The position numbers and the translations under genes are program-made. From Squalus acanthias (taxonomy: Eukaryota), in the NCBI GenBank assembly GCA_030390025.1, contig CM059432.1, positions 33,544,001 to 33,608,000 of the forward strand: 64,000 bases of DNA. The letters run 5' to 3'. Positions within the stretch are counted from its first letter, which is position 1. Every line of letters starts with the position of its first letter. The notes beneath the pieces were generated by a model. That model worked only from the letters and a program-made list of their open reading frames with translations. It searched no databases and had not been told where the DNA came from. This document shows, in pieces, positions 22,320 through 50,554 of this stretch.

Positions 22320-25150
22320 TAAGTCACCTGGTCCAGATGGAATGCATCTTAGGTTGCTGAAAGAAGCAAAGGTAGAAATAGTAGAGGCATTGGTCACAAT
22401 GTTTCAATCCTCATTGGGTACAGGAGGAGTGCCGGAGGACTCGGGGTTGCTAATGTTATACCGCTGTTCAAGAAAGAGGAGATGGATAAACCTGGAAACT
22501 ACAGGCCAGTCAGCCTAACATTGGTGGTGGGAAAGTTACTGGAAACCATTATCATGGACAAAATAAACTTTCATTTGGAAAAGCATGGGTTAATCAAGGA
22601 CAGCCAGCATGGATTTGTTAAAGGCAAATTGTGTCTGGCTAACTTGATTGAATTCTTTGATGAGGTAACAGAGAAGGTTGATCAAGGAAGTACAGTAGAT
22701 GTTGTATATATGGACTTTCGGAAAGCATTCGCAAAGTGCCACACAGAAGGCTTATTAAGAAGATAGAAGCCCATGAAATTAAGGGGAAAGTGGCGGTATG
22801 GATACAAAATTGGCTCAGTGACGGGAAGCAAATGGTGGTGGTGGTGGATGTTTTTCAGACTGGGAGGTGGTTTGCAGTGGTGTTCCCCAAGGGTCAGTTT
22901 TGGGTCAATTACTCTTTGCAATTTTTATAAACGACCTAGACTCGGGTTAAGGGAGCAGCATTATAAGGTTTGCAGATGATACGAAACTTGGTAAAGTAGT
23001 AGATAGTGATGAGGATAGTTATAGGCTTCAGGATGACATAGACAGGATGGTGAAATGGGCAGAAGCATGGCAGATGGAGTTCAATGTGGAGAAGTGTGAA
23101 GTGATGCACTTCGGGAGGACTAATGTGGAAAGGCAGTATACTATAAATGGCACGATTTTGAAGTGTAGATGAGCAGAGAGATCTTGGTGTCCATATACAC
23201 AAATCCTTAAAGGTGGCAGGGCAAGTTGATAAGGTGGTTAAAAAGCACATGGGTTACTTGGGTTTATAAATATAGGATTGGAATATAAAAGCAAAGAGAT
23301 CATGCTAGAACTTTATAAATCACTGGTTAGGCCTCAGCTGGAGTACTGTGGACAATTCAGGGCACCAGACTTCATGAAAGTTGTAAAGGCCTTAGAAAGG
23401 GTACAGAGGAGGTTTACCAAGATGTTACCAGGGATGAGGGACTTCAGTTATGAGGAGCGGTTGGAAAAGTTAGGACTGTTCTCCTTGGAACAGAGAAGGT
23501 TAAGAGGTGGCCTAATAGAGGTTTTCAAGATGATGAGAGGTTTTAATAGAGTAGATAGAGAAAAATTATTTCCTCTGGCGAGTGGGTCAATAACTAGAAG
23601 TATGGGTTAGAAAATCATTATAGCCCAGCAATGGGCGGTATCTTTAGAAAAGTTTGAGAATTAGCGCCAGGTGCTAATGCTTTAGACAGCATGCAAAATT
23701 AATTCTCACTGCTCAAAGAAATGATTGGGGCACTAAATCAAGTCTTAAAGGCCTAGCTCAGTGGCGTTACACTCAAAGGGTGGACCAATATCAGGTGCAG
23801 TCTAATCTCAACTCACATTGCCACAGGCTTTTCCCAGTACTTAATAGGGAGGTTCATTGACACTGCAGCACCTCATTCTCAGCATTGCTGGCTGTGCAGC
23901 TGCCTCAGCAAGGAGAAGCACATCAAGGAGAAGGAGCCGGAGGACTGAAGCAGGTGTGCTCATGGCAGATCCACCTCAGTCGGGTGGTCAGGGTGATTGA
24001 ATGCTTCAACAAAAGCTACATACCACCATCTGTACCACAAGCTTCACACACTGCCCAAAGCACCAGACCCCCAGCACTCACCCACCAACAATCTCTACCT
24101 ACCAACACTCACACCCACATCTCACGCCTTGCACACAATTACAGCTACTCAGCTATGGCAGGCACAAGGTACATTAGTTATTAGAATGAATGTGATATGA
24201 GTGATATGTTTATGCATAAATTTATTAATGGAGTTTGCAAAATTTTGTGGTCTCTCTCATTTCACCTTTGCACCCAGGAGGATGCTGTGATATGGCATGA
24301 CACAGGGATGGTATGATGGGCATGTGGTGAGCAAAGGGGTCTGGGGTTTAAGTCATCCTGGTGTGAGCCTGGAGATCTGTTTGGAGGAGGTTGCAGAGTT
24401 CTGTAACCACCACCTTGGTGATGCGGAGCCGTCTAATACACTGCTCCTCGCTTAATTGAAGGTAGGACAGGTGCTGTCGGAATACCCTCGGAGGGTAAGG
24501 CCTCCTGGTGAGAACCCTGATGTCCCTCCTCATCCCTCTGTGCGCATGTTCTCGTATTAATGCCGATGCCTTTAAATAACGTCACTGGAGCCGGCTTCCG
24601 CTGGCTGTGCACCTGCTCTCCCTGTCGCTGTCTGGTCAAGGTGGAAAGGTAAGCGCCGAAAACCAATTTTGAAGATCAGCCGTCAACACGCTCGATGACG
24701 TCACGATCTGCCTGGCGTTGACATCCCCGGCAGTACCTCGTACCGGCGGCGCAACGGGGGTCTGAATATGTCGCTGGATTTGCCTCGCCCTGGCGCTACT
24801 GCATCAGCGCCCTGTTAGCACCAGCTGCTGGCACTAACGGGAGGCGCTAACCAACTGAATTTTCCCCAGATTCAAAATCATTGGCAAAAGATCTAGAGGG
24901 GAAATGAGGAGAAATTTTTTCACTCAGAGGATTGTTGTGATCTGGAACGTTCTACCTGAAAAGGTGGTGGAAGCTGATTCCATAAATAATTTTAAAAGGG
25001 AGTTGGACAGGTGCTTGAGGATGAGGAACTTACAGGGTTAAGGACAAAAAGCGGGGATGTAGGACTAAGCACGACAGCTCTTCAAAGAGCCAGCACAGGC
25101 ATGACGGGCCGAATGGCCTCCTTCTGTTCTGTAAGTTTCTCTGATTCTGT
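22320..25150 (+). mobile_element. CR1 LINE 3' portion, decayed, split by the Harbinger derivative
   Basis: KSPGPDG, NYRPVSL, QHGF, DFRKAF, FADD, YKSLVRPQLEY; tail GGCCGAATGGCCTCCTTCTG...GATTCTGTG. Confidence 0.9.
23604..24867 (-). mobile_element. Internally deleted Harbinger derivative inserted in a CR1
   Basis: Right end revcomp GGGGAAAATTCAGTTGGTTAGCGCCTCCCGTTAG resembles the intact left end. ATTAGCGCCAGGTGCTAAT at ~23660. Transposase N-terminal relic 24348..24533 (RRPYPPRVFRQHLSYLQLSEEQCIRRLR). CR1 sequence resumes at 24868. Confidence 0.88.
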
Positions 25151-26409: not shown

Positions 26410-27190
26410 TTACGTGGAGAGACTAGTGAAGCTGAGATTGTTCTCCTTAGAGCAGAGAAGCTTAAGAGGAGGTTTAATAGAGGTGTTCAAAATTTTGATA
26501 GAGTAAATATCATGAATGGTTTTGATAAAGTAAATAAAGAGAAACTGTTTCCAGTGGCAGAAGGGAACACAGATTTAAGGTGATTGGCAAAAGAACCAGA
26601 GGTGACATGAGGAAATTTTTTTTTACACAGCGGGTTGTTATGATCTGAAATGCACGGCCTGAAAGGATGGTGGAAGCAGATTCAATAGTAACTTTCAAAA
26701 GAGAATTGGTAAATACTTGAAGGGGAAAAAAAATTACAGGGCTAGGAGAAAGAGTGGGGGGGGTGGGGTTGAGATTAATTGGATAGCTCTACCAAAGAGC
26801 AGACACAGGCACGGTGGGCTGAATGACCTCCTTCAGTTCTGTATCATTCTATGATTCTATGAAATAAGAAAAACCTGTTTCCACTGGCAGGAGGATTGGT
26901 AATCAAAGGACAAAGATTTAAGATAATTGGCAAAAGAACCAGAGGGAAGATGAGAATTTTTTTTTTTTTACACAGCGAGTTGTTACGATCTGGAATACAC
27001 GGCCTGAAAGGATGGTGGAAGCAGATTCAATAGTAACTTTCAAAAGGGAATTGGATATATAATTGAAAAGGAAAAATTTACAGGGCTGGGGGGAAAGAGC
27101 AGAGGGGTGGCACCAACTGATTAGCCCTATCAAAGAGCTGGCACAGGCATGATGGGCTGAATGGCCTCCTTCTGTGCTGTAAGATTCTAT
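26410..27190 (+). mobile_element. Two tandem CR1 3' fragments
   Basis: Two successive ORF2 ends with ATTCTATG tails at ~26860 and ~27190. Confidence 0.82.
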
Positions 27191-27701
27191 GGGGTAAAAA
27201 TTCACTTGGTTGCGCCTCCCGTTAGCGCCTTAAGAGGGCGCTAATGGGGCGTTAAGCCGCTAACGCCCGGGCGCAGCGATGTTTGCGCCGCTCGAGAACT
27301 TAACTTGAGATTGTGCGGCGGCGCTAAAACTTACCGCTGCGACCACCTGCGCGCGCAGATTATGACGTCATTCCATGGTGCAACGCCCTTGGGGCGCCCC
27401 GGAGCGGAAATTGAGTGGCGCCCCCTGCCTTACCGCCTGGCGCTTCCAACGACCGGAAGACTGGAACGCTATCAATCGGTGTGGGGCTGGGGGGGGCGCT
27501 ATTTAAAGGGGGCCTCTTCCTGTCTTTTTCTGTGGTCGACATTTATGCACCACTCGTTCTGAGAGAGAGAGAGAGATTCGGAGAGAGAGAGAGAGAGACT
27601 TCTACATTGACTCAACGCTTTGTGAGGTAGTTTTGCCTATTCATCCTAACTTTGTTGCTACTTTAGTTGCTGTACCTCATTACTTTTCTGGCAAAGAGAA
27701 T

Positions 27702-28862
27702 ATGGGAGCTGCACTGATTGGGGGCGTCGTCCTGCTCCAGCTGAATCGGAGGATACAGAGACACAGACAGAGAGTGGCAATGATGGCCAGACGGAGGAGG
27801 GCCATCAGGCGCATGTACAGGAGAGCTTACCCTCCCAGGGTATATCGTGAACAGCTCTCCTACATCCATATGTCCGAGGAGCTGTGTTTGCGAAGGCTGC
27901 GATTCAGCAAGGAGGTGGTCACTGAGCTCTGCCACCTGCTGCAGCCAGATCTGCAGCCTCAGCTGAGGTCCAGGACGTCTCTGTCGGTGGCAGTGAAGGT
28001 CACAGTGGCTTTGAACTTCTACGCCACTGGCTCATTCCAAGCTGCTGTTGGGGACCTCGCCAATATCTCCCAGTTTGCGGTGCATCGCTGCATCCGGCAG
28101 GTCACCAATGCCCTCTTCAGAAGGAGACGAGACTTCATCTCTTTCCCTATGACCCCAGACAAGCAGCGTGACCGTGCTCTGAGCTTTGCGAGGGTAGCGG
28201 GCTTCCCCATGGTGCAGGGCGCCATTGACTGCACGCATGTGGCTTTGCGTGCTCCGCGAGAGAATGCAGAGGAATTCAGGAACAGAAAGGGGTTCCATTC
28301 CTTGAATGTCCAGTTGGTCTGTGACCACAGACAGGTGATACTCGCTGTCAATGCCCACTATCCGGGCAGCTGCCACGATGCTTTCATCCTGCGCCAGACT
28401 ACTGTGGCAGAAGTTTTTGAGGCACCGCATCAGCCAGTTGGTTGGCTTCTGGGGGACAAGGGGTACGCATTGAGCACCTGGCTGATGACACCGCTCCGTA
28501 CGCCAAACACCCCTGCTGAGCTGCGGTACAATGAAAGCCATCAAGCAAAAAGGAACATTATTGAGCGCACAATCGGCGTGCTGAAACAATGGTTCCGCTG
28601 TCTGGACCATTCCGGAGGAGCCCTGCAGTACTCGCCTGAGCAAGTTTCGAACTTCGTAGTCGTGTGCTGCATGTTGCACAACATGGCAATCCTCAGGACC
28701 CAGCCAATGCCACCAGGCCTTGTAGCACCACCAGAGGAGGAGGAGGAAGAGGAGGAAGAGGACGAGGATGATGATCATCAGCAGCACCAAGGCAGGAGGG
28801 CGGCCCACAATGGTCAAACTGCAAGGGCCGTCCGTCAACGACTAATAGCAAGCCGCTTCTAG
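27702..28862 (+). CDS. Harbinger (HARBI1-family, DDE_Tnp_4) transposase, 386 aa from first ATG
   Basis: Open ORF with motifs GAIDCTH, NRKGFHSLNVQ, PGSCHDAFI, LLGDKGY, IIERTIGVLK, CCMLHN; N-terminal HTH-like region (ALNFYATGSFQ...ISQFAVHRCI); acidic C-terminal tract. Confidence 0.93.
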   Translation: MGAALIGGVVLLQLNRRIQRHRQRVAMMARRRRAIRRMYRRAYPPRVYREQLSYIHMSEELCLRRLRFSKEVVTELCHLLQPDLQPQLRSRTSLSVAVKVTVALNFYATGSFQAAVGDLANISQFAVHRCIRQVTNALFRRRRDFISFPMTPDKQRDRALSFARVAGFPMVQGAIDCTHVALRAPRENAEEFRNRKGFHSLNVQLVCDHRQVILAVNAHYPGSCHDAFILRQTTVAEVFEAPHQPVGWLLGDKGYALSTWLMTPLRTPNTPAELRYNESHQAKRNIIERTIGVLKQWFRCLDHSGGALQYSPEQVSNFVVVCCMLHNMAILRTQPMPPGLVAPPEEEEEEEEEDEDDDHQQHQGRRAAHNGQTARAVRQRLIASRF

Positions 28863-29156
28863 GGCCCCTGCCATTGCTACAAACATTAATCAACCCAGCA
28901 CGCAACCCCTAAGCCGGCCAAGGCACCAATAATTCCAACCACCAGCCATGTATATTTTGAATACAGAAACTTATTTATTTTACAAACTCTGTGTGTGTCA
29001 ATTCCTCATGACAAACTCATAGAAATAAACACAAAAAAACAGTCAATAACATAACTGGTTCTCACAACCTGGAGATAATGTCCAAAACACTAAACAAAAG
29101 TTGGACCATGAACCTCGGCCTTTAATAAAAAAATGACCAGCATTTTGGCACACCTC
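28863..29156. terminator. Shared AT-rich convergent 3' region with candidate polyA signals
   Basis: AATAAA on + at ~29024 and ~29124; TTTATT (AATAAA on -) at ~28974; lies between the two stop codons. Confidence 0.5.
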
Positions 29157-30136
29157 CTACTTTTTGCCCTTCGAGGGTGATCTCCTTCCCTTGCGCACTT
29201 CCCCCCTTCTAACCCTACTGCTCCTCCGTAATGGGACCTCAGTGGCTGCAGCAAGGCTGGTGGAAGGCTGCTGCTCGTCAGACCCTGACACTGCAGATGC
29301 CCCTGAAGGACGGCCTCGACCACTTCTGGGCCTGGAGGGCCCGGCTGCAGACTGCACCAACTCTGCATGGGCGGCAGCAGTCTGTCCTACAGGCGGTGGC
29401 AAGTGCAGTGGAGAAGTGACAGTGTTGGCAGCAGGAATGCTGTCATCGTGCGAGAGGACAGCAACTCCCTGCTCGCCCGACACACTGGCACTCCCACGGG
29501 GCAGCACTTCAGCATCCGGAGCAATCTGCCGGAGAACAGATTGCTGGCCTGCTGCGGCGCGATGACAGCCCCGGGGACATGTACACGAACCATCGAGGTT
29601 GGCAGCAGTCTGTGCTCGCGTGGCCTCCATCTGAGTCTGTATGAGAGCAGTCAGAGGTGGGATCACGGCAGCCAGTGACTGAATTGCAGCACTAAGCGTT
29701 AGTGTGGCATCCGCCTGTGCTACAGCGAAGTGCTCCACACTCCTTGCCAGTGACTCAATGCATTCGGGCACCCTTCCCACTGCACCCATGAGCTCAGTGT
29801 GCATGCCCACCGCCTGGGTGTTCATTTCTGCAATCAGCCGCTCCTCCTCTGCGTCCATTGCAGTAGGAGTGTCTGGCATACTCTCCCTCTGGGGAGAAGG
29901 CCCCCGTTCTTCCCTACCCCCCCCATGGCGTTGCTGCAGCCCGCTGGGTCCTGGAGCTTCACCATCATCAGCCCCTTCCCCCCTGCTCCCCTCCGGGGAA
30001 AGCGTGTTCCCAGTGTGGGCATGGGCTTCCTCGGGAGAGGGTGGCACTGATGCTCTGGCTTCCTCTTCCTCCTCAGCTGCAGCATCACTCCCAGTGGCAG
30101 CTTTAGGGCCCGTCTCCTCAGCTGGTGAATCACCAT
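29157..30136 (-). CDS. Harbinger Myb/SANT-like protein, exon 3 (980 nt, ends TAG)
   Basis: Acceptor CTCCCTGCTTTCAG; the phase-1 join runs in frame into ORF 29157..30047; acidic stretch, helical middle, basic C-terminus RRSSRVRRGEVRKGRRSPSKGKK. Confidence 0.82.
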
Positions 30137-30295
30137 CTGAAAGCAGGGAGGTACAAGAGTGGCTTTAGCGTGAGGACAGGGTGGCAGTAAGGGAGGAATA
30201 AGTGCAGCGAGTTAGCAAGTTGGATTGAAAGTGTCAAAGGCTGGTGTTGTGAGGGACAAGTGGAAGGACAGAGGACAAAAAGGTGATGACCTTAC

Positions 30296-30458
30296 CATTG
30301 CTGTCCACAACGGGGTCGGCGTCTCCAGTGGCGACGGGACCGATCACCCGGCTTGCCACAATCCTGTGGACGTGCTCCTCCAGATCGCTGAGGGGTTGCA
30401 GCTGAGGCCGCCCTCCACCTGTCCGTTGCTGCTGTCTCCGATTGTGCGCCAGCTTGGC
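30296..30458 (-). CDS. Harbinger Myb/SANT-like protein, exon 2 (163 nt)
   Basis: Acceptor TTTTTCTTACAG; AKLAHNRRQQQRTGGGRPQLQPLSDLEE carries the TGGG..L..LEE motif typical of NAIF1/MSANTD-like proteins; GTAAG donor, phase 1. Confidence 0.88.
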
Positions 30459-30487
30459 CTGTAAGAAAAAGGACAGCATCTGAGTAA

Positions 30488-30647
30488 ATATACAGCCATG
30501 GTCTTGCCTGATGTGCCTCCCATATGTGAATAGCCCTTACAATATACAGCCATGGTCTTGCCTGATGTGCCTCCCATAGGTGAATAACCTTACAATATAC
30601 AGCCATGGTCTTGCCTGATGTGCCTCCCATAGGTGAATAGCCCTTAC
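30488..30647. repeat. ~3 x 55-bp tandem repeat in Myb gene intron 1
   Basis: ATATACAGCCATGGTCTTGCCTGATGTGCCTCC...GTGAATAGCCCTTAC occurs three times. Confidence 0.9.
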
Positions 30648-30795
30648 TGTATGCAAAGTGTGGAATGTGTGTGTGTGTTTGATGAAAGGGCCATAGGTGT
30701 TGGATGAGTGTTGTGCATTGGGGTTTTAAGACCCTCTGGCCATATAGTGAGGTTGAGATGGAGGGATGGAGAGGTATTGAGAAAAAGCCACTCAC

Positions 30796-31032
30796 CCTGA
30801 CGACCCGAGTGAGGTCGTTGTACTTTTTGCGGCATTGAGTATGGGTCCTGGGCACCATGCTCCTGGAGGAGACGCTCTGAGCCACCTCCCTCCACACTCT
30901 TCTGAACTCGCGTGGCAAAGTCCTCCTGCCACTCTCAGGGAACAGCATACATCGTCTGCGCTCCACTGCGCCAACCAGAGCATCCAAGGCCCGCTCGGTG
31001 AAGCGATGAGCGCGTTCTCTCACCCTCTCCAT
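30796..31032 (-). CDS. Harbinger Myb/SANT-like DNA-binding protein, exon 1 (79 codons)
   Basis: ATG at 31032; MERVRERAHRFTERALDALVGAVERRRCMLF...VWREVAQSVSS...PRTHTQCRKKYNDLTRVVR is a trihelix Myb/SANT pattern; GTGAG donor at 30795. Confidence 0.88.
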
Positions 31033-31404
31033 GCTTGGCAGCAAAATGGATTCACAGGTCTCTCCAGGCTGAGATTCAAGGCTGCAATGAGCAGGGTGTG
31101 GCTGGGGAGCAAGTGGCCCCCCCCCCCCCCGCTTTAAGAAGTGTCCGGCGCCAGTGTGTCTGTGTTCCCTCGCTAACTGGCAGCAGCTGCGCTGCGCTCG
31201 CGCGCTGAGTTAGCGCCTCACTCCTTGGCCTTTGCGCCTTAAGACAGGTGTGCAGCGCCTGCTTTAGCGCTCCACTCACCTCCCAGGGCGGTAAAAGTGA
31301 AGTTTCCTGTCAGTGCCGATAATTAGCGCCAGGCGCTAATATTTGCGTCCGGACGATATTTGCGCCCCAAATGGGGCGCGACCTAATTTCTACCCCTATG
31401 ATTT

Positions 31405-36699: not shown

Positions 36700-37239
36700 T
36701 CAGTGGTACAGGGTAGGGTAATAAGGTCAGTGGTACGGGGCAGGGTAATAAGGTCAGTGGTACGGGGTAGGGTAATAAGGTCAGTGGTACGGGGCAGGGT
36801 AATAAGGTCAGTGGTACGGGGTAGGGTAATAAGGTCAGTGGTACGGGGCAGGGTAATAAGGTCAGTGGTACGGGGCAGGGTAATAAGGTCAGTGGTACGG
36901 GGCAGGGTAATAAGGTCAGTGGTACGGGGCAGGGTAATAAGGTCAGTGGTGCGGGGCAGGGTAATAAGGTCAGTGGTACGGGGCAGGGTAATAAGGTCAG
37001 TGGTACGGGGCAGGGTAATAAGGTCAGTGGTACGGGGCAGGGTAATAAGGTCAGTGGTACGGGGCAGGGTAATAAGGTCAGTGGTACGGGGCAGGGTAAT
37101 AAGGTCAGTGGTACGGGGCAGGGTAATAAGGTCAGTGGTACGGGGCAGGGTAATAAGGTCAGTGGTACGGGGCAGGGTAATAAGGTCAGTGGTACGGGGC
37201 AGGGTAATAAGGTCAGTGGTACGGGGCAGGGTAATAAGG
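36700..37239. repeat. 27-bp minisatellite, ~20 near-perfect copies
   Basis: Unit TCAGTGGTACGGGGCAGGGTAATAAGG. Confidence 0.97.
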
Positions 37240-41841: not shown

Positions 41842-42025
41842 CTGCCAGTGGCAGTAAAGGTGACAACTGCCTTGAACTTTATTGCCTTGGGTTATTTCCA
41901 GGGTACCAGGGTGGACATCAGCAACAACAATCGATCTGCAATGCATCGCTGCATAAAATAGGTGACTGATGCCTTGCTAGAGCAAACAAGTACATCACTT
42001 TCTCTATGGACACCAGGGAGCAAAA
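41842..42025 (+). pseudogene. Harbinger transposase fragment
   Basis: Translates LPVAVKVTTALNFIALGYFQGTRVDISNNNRSAMHRCIK*VTDAL, matching LSVAVKVTVALNFYATGSFQAAVGDLANISQFAVHRCIRQVTNAL of the intact copy; contains a stop and a frameshift. Confidence 0.85.
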
Positions 42026-42999
42026 GTCCCAACTGATTCCCACAAGTGCAGGGGGTAATTTATTCCACCCATATTACCTTTCATATACACAAATAGACAC
42101 AGACAGACAGATATGTAAATATACACACAATTACAGATACACAGTTACAATGCATAGACAGTCATATAAATACACAAATCATAGATACTTGTACGAAGAC
42201 ACACACATGCTTCTTTACTGCTCCAACATGTTGTCATGTGCATGTCCACTCTATGGTTGTTGTGGGGATGGAACAGGTTGGTTGATGAAGGGGTGGAACA
42301 GGTTGGTTGTGCGGGCGGCACTGGTTGGTTGTTGTAGAGGTAGAATAGGCAGGTTGTTAGGGTGGCAAAGGTTGTTTGGTGTGGGAGTGGCAAAGTTTGA
42401 TTGGTGTGGGAAAAGGAAAGAAAGTCATAACGGTGCAGTACAGGGTGCCATTCTAGGGTTGGGACTAAGGATCATTACTGGGACAGTTAAAGGGAGCTTT
42501 AGTCTGCATCTAGCTGTGCTACACCAGACCTGGACATGCTTGATGCTGACACTAGCACCAGGTATTTCCTCGGAGAGTTCTCCCGATTGGCTGCTATAAT
42601 TTCAGCAGAAGATCGGTGTAAATCCAGTTTATCTGGGGTTCCTGACGCTCTTCCGCCGAAGTTGATCAGAGACTCCCCAAAGAAATTCCCAGTGTCAGTA
42701 TCTGAAATGGGAAAGAATTCCATCCTTTAACACAAATATCCCACACTTTAACTATAAATCTGGATTTATGGGGCCCTGCAACAAATAGAAGGTATCTCCA
42801 CATGATGGGTCACAGTAATGGCACAGAGAAACGGGACCATATAGATCAGGAGGTCCCAGGTTTGATCCAATCTCAGCCAAGGCAGCAGTAGGATCTTTAC
42901 AATCAGCTTCAGTGAACGATGACCCTACGCCAGAGCAGGGAAAATCAGCCAGAGCTCCAGATCCTAATCTAGTAACTCCTGCTGGACAGCTATCCACAA

Positions 43000-47240: not shown

Positions 47241-49912
47241 GTACATAAGAACATAAGAACATAAGAAATAGGAGCAGGAGTAGGCCAATCGGCCCCTCGA
47301 GCCTGCTCCGCCATTCAATAAGATCATGGCTGATCTGATCCTAACCGCCAATCTACTATCTATCACAGAACCATCTCCTGCATCTAACAGAATTGCACAC
47401 ACGAAATAGGAGCAGAATCAGGCTACACGGTCCCTGGGCCCGCTCCACTACCCACAGGGCCATGACCGATCCGAACCTAGACTCATGTCCAAATTCCTGC
47501 CCGCTCCCCGTAACCCTTAATGCCCTTTACTTCTAGGAAACTGTCTATTTCTGTTTTAAATTTAATTAATGTTGTAGCTTCTACAGCTTTTTGTGGCAGC
47601 ATATTCCATGGACCTACCACCCTCTGAGTGAAGTAGTTCCTCCTCATCTCAGTTTTGAAAGAGCAGCCCCTTATTCTAAGACTATGTCCCCTAGTTCTCG
47701 TCTCACCCGTCATCGGGAACATCCTCCCCGCATCCACCCGATCCAACCCCTTCACAATCTTATATGTTTCAATAAGATCGCCTCTCATTCTTCTGAACTC
47801 CAATGAGTAGAGTCCCAATCTACCCAACCTCTCCTCATATGACCACCCCCTCATCCCCGGGATTAACCGAGTGAACCTTTTTTGCACTGCCTCGAGAGCA
47901 AGGATGTCTTTCCTTAAGTAAGGACACCAAAACTGTATGCAGTATTCCAGGTGCGGTCTCACCAATACCTTGTACAACTGAAGCAATACCTCCCTATTTT
48001 TATATTCTATCCCCCTAGCAATGAAAGCCAACATTCCATTTGCCTTCTTAATCACTTGCTGCACCTGCATACTAACCTTTTGAGTTTCGTGCACCAGGAC
48101 CCCCAGATCCCTTTGCACTTCAGTACTCTCCAGTTTCTTGCCATTAAGATAATAAATTGCTCTAGGATTTTTCCTGCCAAAGTGCATCACCTCACACTTT
48201 CCAGTGTTGTATTCCATCTGCCAAATCTCTGCCCACTTACTTAGCCTGTCTATGTCCCCTTGCAGGTTTTTTATGTCCTCCTCACTCACTACTTTCCCTC
48301 CCATCTTTGTATCATCTGCAAATTTTGATATGTTACACTTGGTCCCTTCCTCCAAATCGTTAATATAGATTGTGAAGAGTTGGGGACCCAGCACTGACCC
48401 CTGTGGAACACCACTAGTTACTGATTGCCAGTCTGAGAATGAACCATTTATCCCAACTCTTTGCTTTCTGTTAGATAGCCAATCCTCTATCCATGCCAGA
48501 ATATTACCCCCAATCCCGTGATTTTTTACCTTAAGCAATAATCTTTTGTGTGGCACCTTGTCAAATGCCTTTTGGAAGTCTAAATACACTACGTCCACCG
48601 GTTCCCCTTTATCCACTCTAAATGTTACTTCCTCAAAGAACTCCAGCAAATTTGTCAAACATGACTTCCCCTTCGTAAAACCATGCTGACTTTGTCCTAT
48701 TAAATTATGATTATCCAAATGTCCTGTTACTGTTTCCTTAATAATGGACTCCAAAATTTTACCTACCACAGATGTTAGGCTAACCGGTCTATAGTTACCA
48801 GCCTTCTGTCTACTGCCCTTTTTAAATAAGGGTGTTACATTAGCAGTTTTCCAGTCTGCCGGGACCTTAGCGGAATCCAGGGAGTTTTGAAAAATTATTA
48901 CCAATGCATCTACAATCCCTACCGCCACTTCCTTCAAGACTCTAGGATGTAAGCCATCAGGTCCAGGTGATTTATCCGCCTTGAGTCCCATTATTTTACC
49001 GAGTACCACTTCCTTAGTGATTTTGATCGTGTTTAGCTCCTCTCCCCCTATAGCCCCCTGTTTGTCCAGTGTTGGGATATTCTTAGTGTCCTCTACTGTA
49101 AAGACTGATACAAAATATTCATTCAGTGTTTTTGCCATCTCCATATTTCCCACCATTAATTTCCCGGTCTCATCCTCTAAGGGACCAACATTTACTTTAG
49201 CCACCCTTTTTCTTTTTATATAACTATAAAAACTCTTACTATCTGTTTTTATATTTTTTGCTAATTTACTTTCATAATCTATCTTCCCTTTCTTAATCAA
49301 TCTTTTTGTTATTTTTTGCTGCCTTTTAAAGTTTTCCCAATCCTCTGTCCTCCCACTAGATTTCGCTACCTTATATGCCCTTGTTTTTAGTCGAATACTA
49401 TCCTTAATTTCTTTACTTAGCCACGGATGACTGTCCTTTCTTTTACACCCTTTTCTTTTCAGTGGAATATATTTTTTTTGGAAGTTGTAAAATAACTCCT
49501 TGAATGTACACCACTGATCATGTGTCGTCTTACCCTTTAATCTATTTTCCCAATCCACTCTACTCAATTCCGCTCGCATACCTTCATAGTCTCCTTTATT
49601 CAAGCTTAGCACGCTTGTTTGAGATCCAACCTTCTCACCCTCTAATTGAATATGGAATTCAACCATGTTATGGTCACTCATTCCAAGGGGATCCTTTACT
49701 AGGACATTTTTAATTAATCCTGTCTCGTTACACAGGACCAGATCTAAGGTTGCTTGCCCCCTGGTCGGTTCAGTTACATACTGCTCAAGAAACCCATCCC
49801 TAATACACTCAATGAACTCATCCTCAAGGCAGCCCTGCCCCATTTGATTTGTCCAATTAATATGATAGTTAAAATCCCCCATAATTATAGATGTTCCCTT
49901 ATTACATGCCTC
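47241..49912 (-). mobile_element. Young 5'-truncated CR1 LINE (family A)
   Basis: Open ORF2, 3' UTR and (TCTTATGT)n tail at 47241-47265; inserted into another LINE. Confidence 0.95.
47483..49882 (-). CDS. CR1 ORF2, N-truncated: C-terminal part of APE endonuclease + reverse transcriptase
   Basis: 799 codons without a stop; GDFN, LDL, SDH (endonuclease); [37 protein letters not shown] (RT). The frame stays open upstream of the ATG to the truncation point. Confidence 0.92.
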   Translation of the reverse strand: MGDFNYHINWTNQMGQGCLEDEFIECIRDGFLEQYVTEPTRGQATLDLVLCNETGLIKNVLVKDPLGMSDHNMVEFHIQLEGEKVGSQTSVLSLNKGDYEGMRAELSRVDWENRLKGKTTHDQWCTFKELFYNFQKKYIPLKRKGCKRKDSHPWLSKEIKDSIRLKTRAYKVAKSSGRTEDWENFKRQQKITKRLIKKGKIDYESKLAKNIKTDSKSFYSYIKRKRVAKVNVGPLEDETGKLMVGNMEMAKTLNEYFVSVFTVEDTKNIPTLDKQGAIGGEELNTIKITKEVVLGKIMGLKADKSPGPDGLHPRVLKEVAVGIVDALVIIFQNSLDSAKVPADWKTANVTPLFKKGSRQKAGNYRPVSLTSVVGKILESIIKETVTGHLDNHNLIGQSQHGFTKGKSCLTNLLEFFEEVTFRVDKGEPVDVVYLDFQKAFDKVPHKRLLLKVKNHGIGGNILAWIEDWLSNRKQRVGINGSFSDWQSVTSGVPQGSVLGPQLFTIYINDLEEGTKCNISKFADDTKMGGKVVSEEDIKNLQGDIDRLSKWAEIWQMEYNTGKCEVMHFGRKNPRAIYYLNGKKLESTEVQRDLGVLVHETQKVSMQVQQVIKKANGMLAFIARGIEYKNREVLLQLYKVLVRPHLEYCIQFWCPYLRKDILALEAVQKRFTRLIPGMRGWSYEERLGRLGLYSLEFRRMRGDLIETYKIVKGLDRVDAGRMFPMTGETRTRGHSLRIRGCSFKTEMRRNYFTQRVVGPWNMLPQKAVEATTLIKFKTEIDSFLEVKGIKGYGERAGIWT

Positions 49913-50554
49913 AACTGCAGTCTGTGTGGTGAATGTACTCCCACAGTGCTGTTAGGGAGGGAATTCCAGGATTTTGACCCAGTGACGATGAAGGAACAGC
50001 GATATATTTCCAAGTCATGATGGTGTGTGACTTGGAGAGGAACTTGGAGGTGGTGGTGTTCTCATGCGCCTGTTGCCCTTGTCCTTCTAGGTGGTAGAGG
50101 TCGTGGGTTTGGGAGGTGCTGCTGAAGAAGCCTTGGTGAGTTGTTGCATCTTGTAGATGGTACATACTGCAACCACAGTGGGCCAGTGGTGGAGGAAGCC
50201 AGGAGCTGAGTCACTCGCTGCAGAATACGCAGCCCATGACCTGCTCTTGTAGCCACATTATTTATGTGGCTGGTCCAGTTAAGTTTCTGGTCAATGGTGA
50301 CCCCCAGGATGTTGATTGTGGGGGAATTCGACAATGATAATGCCACTGAATATCAAGAGGAGGTGGTTAGACTTTCTCTTGTTGGAGATGGTCATTGCCT
50401 GGCACTTGTGTGGTGTGAATGTTACTAGCCACTTCTCAGCCCAAGCCTGAATGTTGTCCAGGTCTTGCTGCATGCGGGCGTGGACTGCTTCATTATCTGA
50501 GGAATTACGAATGGAACTGAACACTGTGAAATCAGCGGACATCACCACTTCTAA

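Follow-up and report, generated by a model that had tools for sequence, protein, structure and literature searches.

Two-gene Harbinger transposons are known from several hosts, and we compare them here with an element at positions 27191-31396 of a 64-kb stretch of the Squalus acanthias genome (contig CM059432.1, positions 33,544,001 to 33,608,000), called the window below. According to the accessible text of the cited papers, Harbinger3_DR of zebrafish is a reconstructed two-gene system whose palindromic target consensus contains AAACAC (PMC3016246, PMC9392472). In architecture and target consensus, the two features compared, the shark element resembles it: both have a DDE transposase gene and a Myb-like gene, and both have a palindromic target with AAACAC to the left of the triplet. 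The shark triplet differs in being loose, with a middle A or T and no CWG (0/67), and native shark copies often keep both frames open, whereas the zebrafish system was reconstructed. Harbinger-Snek of sea kraits, with 269 intact copies in one species, is also a large vertebrate expansion with intact native copies and non-autonomous derivatives that has now slowed; it arrived by horizontal transfer and forms 8-12% of the genome (PMC8437027), whereas the shark lineage looks vertical and forms about 0.8%, plus 0.1% for a miniature inverted-repeat transposable element (MITE). NuwaI and NuwaII share with the shark element DDE and Myb/SANT open reading frames (ORFs), short terminal inverted repeats (TIRs) starting with GG, and a length of 4.1-4.7 kb (PMC4482050, which counts 88 "potential active" PIF/Harbinger families). 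The mPing/Ping/Pong system of rice likewise combines an autonomous two-gene element with a MITE and a 3-bp duplication, but differs in its strict TTA/TAA target and proven activity (PMC4561436).

Among cartilaginous fish, published listings include PIF-Harbinger in the whale shark (PMC8455134) and Tourist/Harbinger in the grey reef shark, in which DNA transposons make up 1.58% of the genome (PMC12498223). A survey of fish Harbingers did not detect them in the elephant shark and called for testing other cartilaginous fish (PMC9179366). We found no family-level description of a shark Harbinger in a literature search whose range ended short of supplements, Repbase, Dfam and most subscription journals. 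The closest proteins are elasmobranch "putative nuclease HARBI1" entries (60-65% identical, none near-identical), which are named as host genes and not as transposon families. The window element is not a new kind of element; its architecture, its target preference and the presence of intact copies in vertebrates all have precedents. An earlier note on this DNA, made from the letters alone, had raised the novelty of the family as a point to check; novelty is limited by the intact native vertebrate Harbingers (PMC8437027) and the shark PIF-Harbingers already reported. The best protein match is 65% identical.

We consider it likely that the window element is a single insertion belonging to a very large two-gene Harbinger (PHIS) lineage of the shark and that it is now decaying neutrally. 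The element is a complete Harbinger-type unit of 4,206 bp between two TAT triplets, and its 12-bp TIRs, which read GGGGTA(A/G)AAATT as the earlier note had them, agree at 11 of 12 positions; no other such end pair occurs in the window. All 30 copies taken from the best genome matches align end to end or to within at most 4 bases of the ends, each at a different genomic place. These dispersed copies share the ends of the element and therefore exclude its origin by chance. It thus has the features of PHIS, or PIF-Harbinger in the broad sense: a DDE_Tnp_4 transposase, a Myb/SANT ORF, and TIRs with 3-bp duplications on dispersed copies.

The 4.2-kb unit and perfect TAT duplication of the earlier note were confirmed, as were its stop-free 386-aa transposase with D(GAID)-D(GDKG)-E(IER) residues, its convergent three-exon Myb/SANT gene and its shark-like host genome, for which the best protein matches come from sharks and rays. 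The abundant CpGs that it saw are real and strongest at the ends: the observed-to-expected ratio (o/e) is 0.56 over the whole element and 1.15 and 0.96 at the left and right ends, against 0.38 and 0.33 in the flanks. CpG retention was rejected as proof of activity, since CpGs in these copies decay about three times faster than other sites (1.85% versus 0.57% in the 30 best genome matches). The GC-rich motifs at 27203..27500 are likely binding sites for the Myb protein, and the AT-rich spacer at 28863..29156 probably contains the 3' untranslated regions of both genes.

The genome search that the earlier note had proposed for copy number and identity returned thousands of dispersed copies, the best of them 98-100% identical. 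In this 3.71-Gb genome, 34 of 35 scored places were full length at 98-100% when we searched with the whole element (the 35 best of 4,986 candidates), and a protein search found at least 107 places, all 98-100% identical and 106 without a stop. Exact patterns matched 5,142 left ends and 9,015 right ends, and a 22-mer around transposase residue D176 matched 7,663 times; control matches were 0. The first 60 left-end matches on contig C1 comprised 48 MITEs (874-896 bp) and 12 elements of 4.1-4.3 kb. Extrapolated to the genome, this gives about 4,100 MITEs and about 1,000 full-length copies carrying this exact left end. Of the first 47 transposase matches on C1, 38 span 90% or more of the element and 26 have an open transposase. 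Both frames are open in at least 10 of the 47, a floor because 14 Myb genes could not be modelled. As a lower-bound estimate, the lineage occupies about 0.8% of the genome and the MITE about 0.1% more, or about 0.9% together.

The lineage is structured into subfamilies, a ladder along which identity to the transposase gene of the window element falls from 99% to about 82% (of 47 rows, the three lowest, at 62-82%, are partly misaligned). The left subterminal region of the element is common to an 893-bp MITE at about 94%. The MITE arose from a relative of the window's subfamily, since its ends are about 94% and 86% like those of that subfamily. Copies are mosaic, with 438 of 861 site pairs failing the four-gamete test. 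A further 99% copy without about 360 bp of the right end lies about 100 kb from the window element (G000:C8:33676945-33680793, minus strand). The pairs L059/L060, L118/L119 and L075/L076 are adjacent near-identical elements that share flanks or junctions and are local duplications, not fresh jumps.

The transposase frame has no internal stop, and its motifs GAIDC, GDKGY and IERT supply the catalytic residues D176, D252 and E288. The predicted structure (mean predicted local distance difference test score [pLDDT] 89) places T283, E288 and R297 together on helix 271-297. Solved structures gave no sequence match better than E=0.31, and a Foldseek search with the predicted structure gave none at E<=0.001, the matches returned being weak ones to DDE transposases and integrases. 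Elasmobranch proteins are the closest in the databases, with the best full-length matches 60-65% identical and the best bony-fish match 50%; homologues annotated "putative nuclease HARBI1" come from Pristiophorus, Mobula, Narcine, Heptranchias, Carcharodon and others.

The Myb-like gene on the minus strand has exons of 237, 163 and 980 nt with GT-AG introns, which join to encode 459 aa and a stop. Among 23 sister copies, chosen from 40 as near full length, the four splice dinucleotides were retained in 23, 21, 23 and 22, and the length of intron 1 was altered in 22 while that of exon 2 was altered in none. The conserved splice sites and exon 2 length support the three-exon model. No sequencing run that contains the element is recorded as RNA, and one raw-read RNA run under another organism label (X21) gave 0 reads, which carries no weight either way. 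Contigs from two sequencing runs presumed to be RNA were unspliced across the intron boundaries and may hold DNA or intronic RNA; none of the 13 joints displayed for these two runs was a splice joint. A search for longer relatives of the exon 1 peptide gave 102 candidates, 0 at E<=0.001. Intron 2 (30137-30295) is 98-100% identical to that of subfamilies (L091-L128) whose transposase genes are 91-98% identical, which, as judged from these alignments, is consistent with mosaic exchange among copies. In a young subfamily, represented by 7 of the 47 sampled copies (L093, L094, L100, L108, L114, L117 and L121), Myb exon 3 carries a duplicated stretch of about 88-91 bp. At least 3 of these copies are thereby frameshifted in the Myb gene, with the transposase of the subfamily mostly still open; this subfamily may have spread with the Myb protein supplied in trans.

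We judged selection by pairwise ratios of nonsynonymous to synonymous substitution (dN/dS) and by comparing changes found in single copies with changes shared among the 30 best matches. Between subfamilies, dN/dS was 0.20-0.40, and 0.11-0.28 in the catalytic core (residues 170-330). Single-copy changes, tested against the mutation spectrum of the element's non-coding parts, fit neutrality in both the transposase (72 nonsynonymous or stop to 33 synonymous, p=0.59) and the Myb gene (96:36, p=1.0). Transposase changes common to at least 4 copies were 4 nonsynonymous or stop to 11 synonymous (Fisher p=0.003), whereas those in the Myb gene (8:3) showed no purifying effect. Purifying selection on the transposase, together with neutral single-copy changes, therefore indicates a working lineage that sheds decaying copies.

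The window copy appears to be one of those decaying copies. It differs from the majority of the 30 best matches at 32 sites and carries 17 private substitutions, more than most of 41 full-length copies; none of these is closer than 45 differences, so no sampled copy descends from it. Private changes are R21H, G161S, T283K and R297W in the transposase and P38T and F71Y in the Myb domain. Of 120 homologues, 103 have T at position 283, 81 have R at position 297 and 73 have G at position 161; W is absent from the six commonest letters at position 297, and in an alignment of 39 sequences the conservation of R297 is 90% or more. T283K and R297W fall on the modelled E288 helix at conserved positions, and the transposase of the window copy is therefore probably weakened or dead although its frames are open. 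A working, autonomous window copy would fit the open frames, canonical splice sites, DDE triad, intact TIRs, perfect duplication and confident transposase model. We nevertheless consider it very improbable, given two private changes on the E288 helix among the four in the transposase, two more in the Myb domain, and the distance from all 41 copies. Better candidates for a working element exist among the 30 best matches, to go by their sequences. The term "intact" used in the earlier note thus holds for the two reading frames and not for the conserved residues, and its suggestion of possible autonomy was not supported for this copy.

The median terminal branch is 0.39% for the 41 full-length copies and 0.46% for 48 MITEs, and private changes average 0.26%. 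At the epaulette shark rate of 7e-10 per base per generation (95% confidence interval 1.4-14.1e-10; PMC10587355), 0.26-0.4% of own changes corresponds to 3.7-5.7 million generations, or 1.8-28.6 million across the rate interval. The earlier note had called the family recent, which is true in substitutions but weakened by this slow shark clock. In the unbiased C1 samples, identical pairs numbered 0 of 66 for full-length copies and 0 of 1,128 for MITEs. A search for an empty allele of the window's insertion site gave 0 matches in the genome, in one assembly only.

Several results weigh against a lineage that has only decayed since its wave. All 41 of the 41 full-length copies retain D176, D252 and E288. 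Both frames are open in 24 of the 30 best matches, and 5 of these 30 also have no rare change in transposase residues 40-331 or Myb residues 1-100, so that competent copies may, from their sequences, survive elsewhere in the genome. A targeted search found 1 of 28 other MITEs identical to the query MITE, on another contig and with other flanks. The window copy itself keeps both frames and splice sites open, and the effect of T283K and R297W is deduced from conservation. The dating also leans upward, as sampling 41 of about 1,000 copies and mosaicism both lengthen terminal branches, and the mutation rate comes from another shark and is based on five mutations. Both unbiased samples, by left end and by transposase, come from the first 34 Mb of C1.

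These results bear on whether low-rate transposition of the family continues in the shark germ line, sustained by some of the two-open-frame copies and with the MITE as its latest cargo, which could hold even with the window copy impaired. The 10 of 47 sampled copies with both frames open correspond to about 800-2,700 genome-wide (95% interval), and the lineage has been renewed through many subfamilies. The youngest MITE clade is over-dispersed, with a median of 2 differences from its centre (mean 3.5, variance 9.0), and the one identical MITE pair lies at unrelated sites. That pair does not need present activity, because a Poisson distribution with a mean of 3.5 leaves a few per cent of copies without mutations (P0=0.03). 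Among the closest full-length pairs (3 and 11 differences) are neighbours sharing flanks or junctions, like local duplications, and within another young subfamily any two of seven copies are 11-35 differences apart over about 3,050 sites. We regard low-rate activity as unlikely, though the family may still move.

Two further origins can be weighed against the copy number and relationships of the family. Recent entry into the shark lineage by horizontal transfer, as for Harbinger-Snek in sea kraits, would fit the sequencing runs under seven organism labels that contain more than half of the element's sampled 31-mers, and the contigs under two other labels that match it with few changes (in one case 2 differences over 563 nt). 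The labels are coded, however, and may be those of close relatives sharing a slow clock. As far as coded labels can tell, these matches would fit amplification before close relatives split. The subfamily ladder from about 99% to about 82% lies within this genome, and the top protein matches are all elasmobranch (60-65%, against 50% for the best bony fish); we find recent transfer quite improbable. A domesticated HARBI1/NAIF1-like host gene pair, a segmental duplicate or an assembly artefact has a negligible chance of being correct. The database name "putative nuclease HARBI1" is in keeping with a host gene, but this reading is refuted by copy number (7,663 22-mer matches) and by distinct flanks: thousands of dispersed copies have TIRs and their own duplications, single copies decay neutrally, and the element is present in independent sequencing runs. 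A neutrally decaying copy of a large, apparently vertically inherited lineage remains the reading that we prefer.

We examined target choice at 116 distinct insertions from loci L001-L090 and L131-L160. A perfect 3-bp duplication was present in 90, with a middle A or T in 84 of these. The target profile, drawn from 67 perfect duplications among 90 loci (two loci repeat another site), is a palindrome of about 15 bp that can be written roughly as A-R-A-n-W-C-[3 bp, middle A/T]-G-W-n-T-Y-T. A fraction of 0.91 has A at -5 and T at +5, and the commonest letters at -7 to -2 are AAACAC. The central triplet is loose (ATA/TAT 22, TAA/TTA 15, AAA/TTT 8 and CAA/TTG 8 of 67). The TWA duplication that defines PIF/Harbinger in the strict sense in the accessible text of PMC4482050 was thus limited to 15 of 67 sites as TAA/TTA, and the CWG of NuwaI was found in 0 of the 67. 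C at -2 and G at +2 (0.68 each) recall the C|TNA|G site of NuwaII (PMC4482050), but with a first T and last A in 0.59 of symmetrised sites the shark triplet is looser than TNA. Going by target site, the lineage may be said to fit NuwaII partly; its likeness to NuwaII is one of structure and target site.

Abundant repeats have been hit more than once, independently, at an identical base, for example by four insertions in one repeat (in both orientations) and by three in the tail of one long interspersed nuclear element (LINE). Two MITEs, L049 and L081, occupy neighbouring units of a single 8-bp LINE tail at a distance of 11 bp (about 905-1800 from the start of the first MITE). The window element itself sits in the tandem tail of a LINE fragment, which was matched to the C terminus of the window's reverse transcriptase ORF and which we take to be of the CR1 type. 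An uninterrupted copy lies just upstream. The 8-bp LINE tails fit the palindromic profile, which explains the insertion site of the window element. Tail-type sites made up 10 of 65 insertions versus 4.8% expected from a position weight matrix (p=0.001), a comparison in which the matrix treats positions as independent, the background is 221,646 local bases and the tail detector missed the window's own site. We did not adopt a special homing to LINE tails and kept sequence preference as the simpler reading.

Junctions are altered more often than decay predicts. Unequal triplets flank 26 of the 116 insertions (15 with one, 8 with two and 3 with three mismatches), versus 2.8-8.1 expected from 0.4-1.2% decay. 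The outer four element bases were changed at 8 of 240 positions versus 7 of 1,200 for the next twenty (30 best matches), and some unequal duplications resemble junction deletions of 1-3 bp or boundary shifts. For mPing, the accessible text of PMC4561436 proposes a staggered transposase cut at the duplications and reports that altered duplications inhibit excision. The excess of junction errors could reflect donor bases on the excised end that mismatch a different target triplet, or the accumulation of end-damaged copies that stay put. Error-prone gap filling is a third reading, and mismatch counts alone do not separate the three.

By analogy with other Harbingers (PMC9392472), the Myb-like protein would bind the ends and import and recruit the transposase, which, as proposed for mPing (PMC4561436), would make a staggered cut at the 3-bp duplications and insert the element into a new target. 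Both proteins presumably act in trans, so that damaged copies and MITEs would also have been moved. The palindromic target of about 15 bp makes the same positions of abundant repeats recurrent landing sites, and the wave that produced the window copy would have peaked millions of generations ago.

Table 1. Features of the Harbinger element and its host site (positions in the window)
Feature	Position	Strand	Evidence
Host site: LINE 3' fragment with 8-bp tandem tail holding the element	26866..27190	+	49% identity, E=2e-12
Left target duplication TAT, 3 bp	27188..27190		sequence
Left TIR, 12 bp	27191..27202	+	same end in 26 of 30 best genome matches
Left subterminal region, CpG-rich, repeated short GC-rich motifs	27203..27500		CpG o/e 1.15; motif list
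DDE transposase, single exon, 386 aa, D176/D252/E288	27702..28862	+	open frame, Pfam DDE_Tnp_4 E=1.3e-37
AT-rich spacer between converging stop codons	28863..29156		GC 0.39, CpG o/e 0.30
Myb-like exon 3, 980 nt, low complexity, basic C terminus	30136-29157	-	sequence; without Pfam match
Myb-like exon 2, 163 nt	30458-30296	-	same length in 23/23 sister copies
53/54-bp tandem repeat, 3 units, in intron 1	30487..30647		unit number differs among copies
Myb-like exon 1, Myb/SANT domain	31032-30796	-	Myb_DNA-bind_5 E=2.3e-10; private P38T, F71Y
Right subterminal region, CpG-rich	31150..31384		CpG o/e 0.96; motif list
Right TIR, 12 bp	31385..31396	-	sequence
Right target duplication TAT	31397..31399		sequence

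Other repeats were found elsewhere in the window. At 47486-49951 on the minus strand lies a 5'-truncated, fairly intact LINE: its 822-aa open frame encodes reverse transcriptase and part of an endonuclease domain, and a tandem tail comes after it. Older Harbinger relics comprise transposase fragments at 24357-24476 and 24786-24863 and a left-end-like stretch at 41842-42081. A minisatellite at 36700-37239 has a 27-bp unit in 20 copies with 98% matches.

In this 3.7-Gb shark genome a single Harbinger lineage, present mostly as full-length two-gene copies, accounts for about 0.9%, a fact useful for the study of shark genome evolution. The size of the lineage and its junction errors are the points worth following, and the many native copies are available for testing. 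It is tempting to go further and picture a still-mobile, vertically inherited shark Harbinger lineage with about a thousand native two-gene copies, steered by its target into LINE tails and other repeats, whose excised ends carry the donor triplet and so, the central triplet being loose, often give new insertions unequal duplications; we hold this combined picture to be distinctly doubtful. A demonstration of present activity or of the donor-triplet mechanism would add to the value of the family. If donor triplets are carried over, the genome would be a natural record of Harbinger transposase cutting, and if the lineage is still mobile, its native shark copies would provide a vertebrate Harbinger system that needs no reconstruction.

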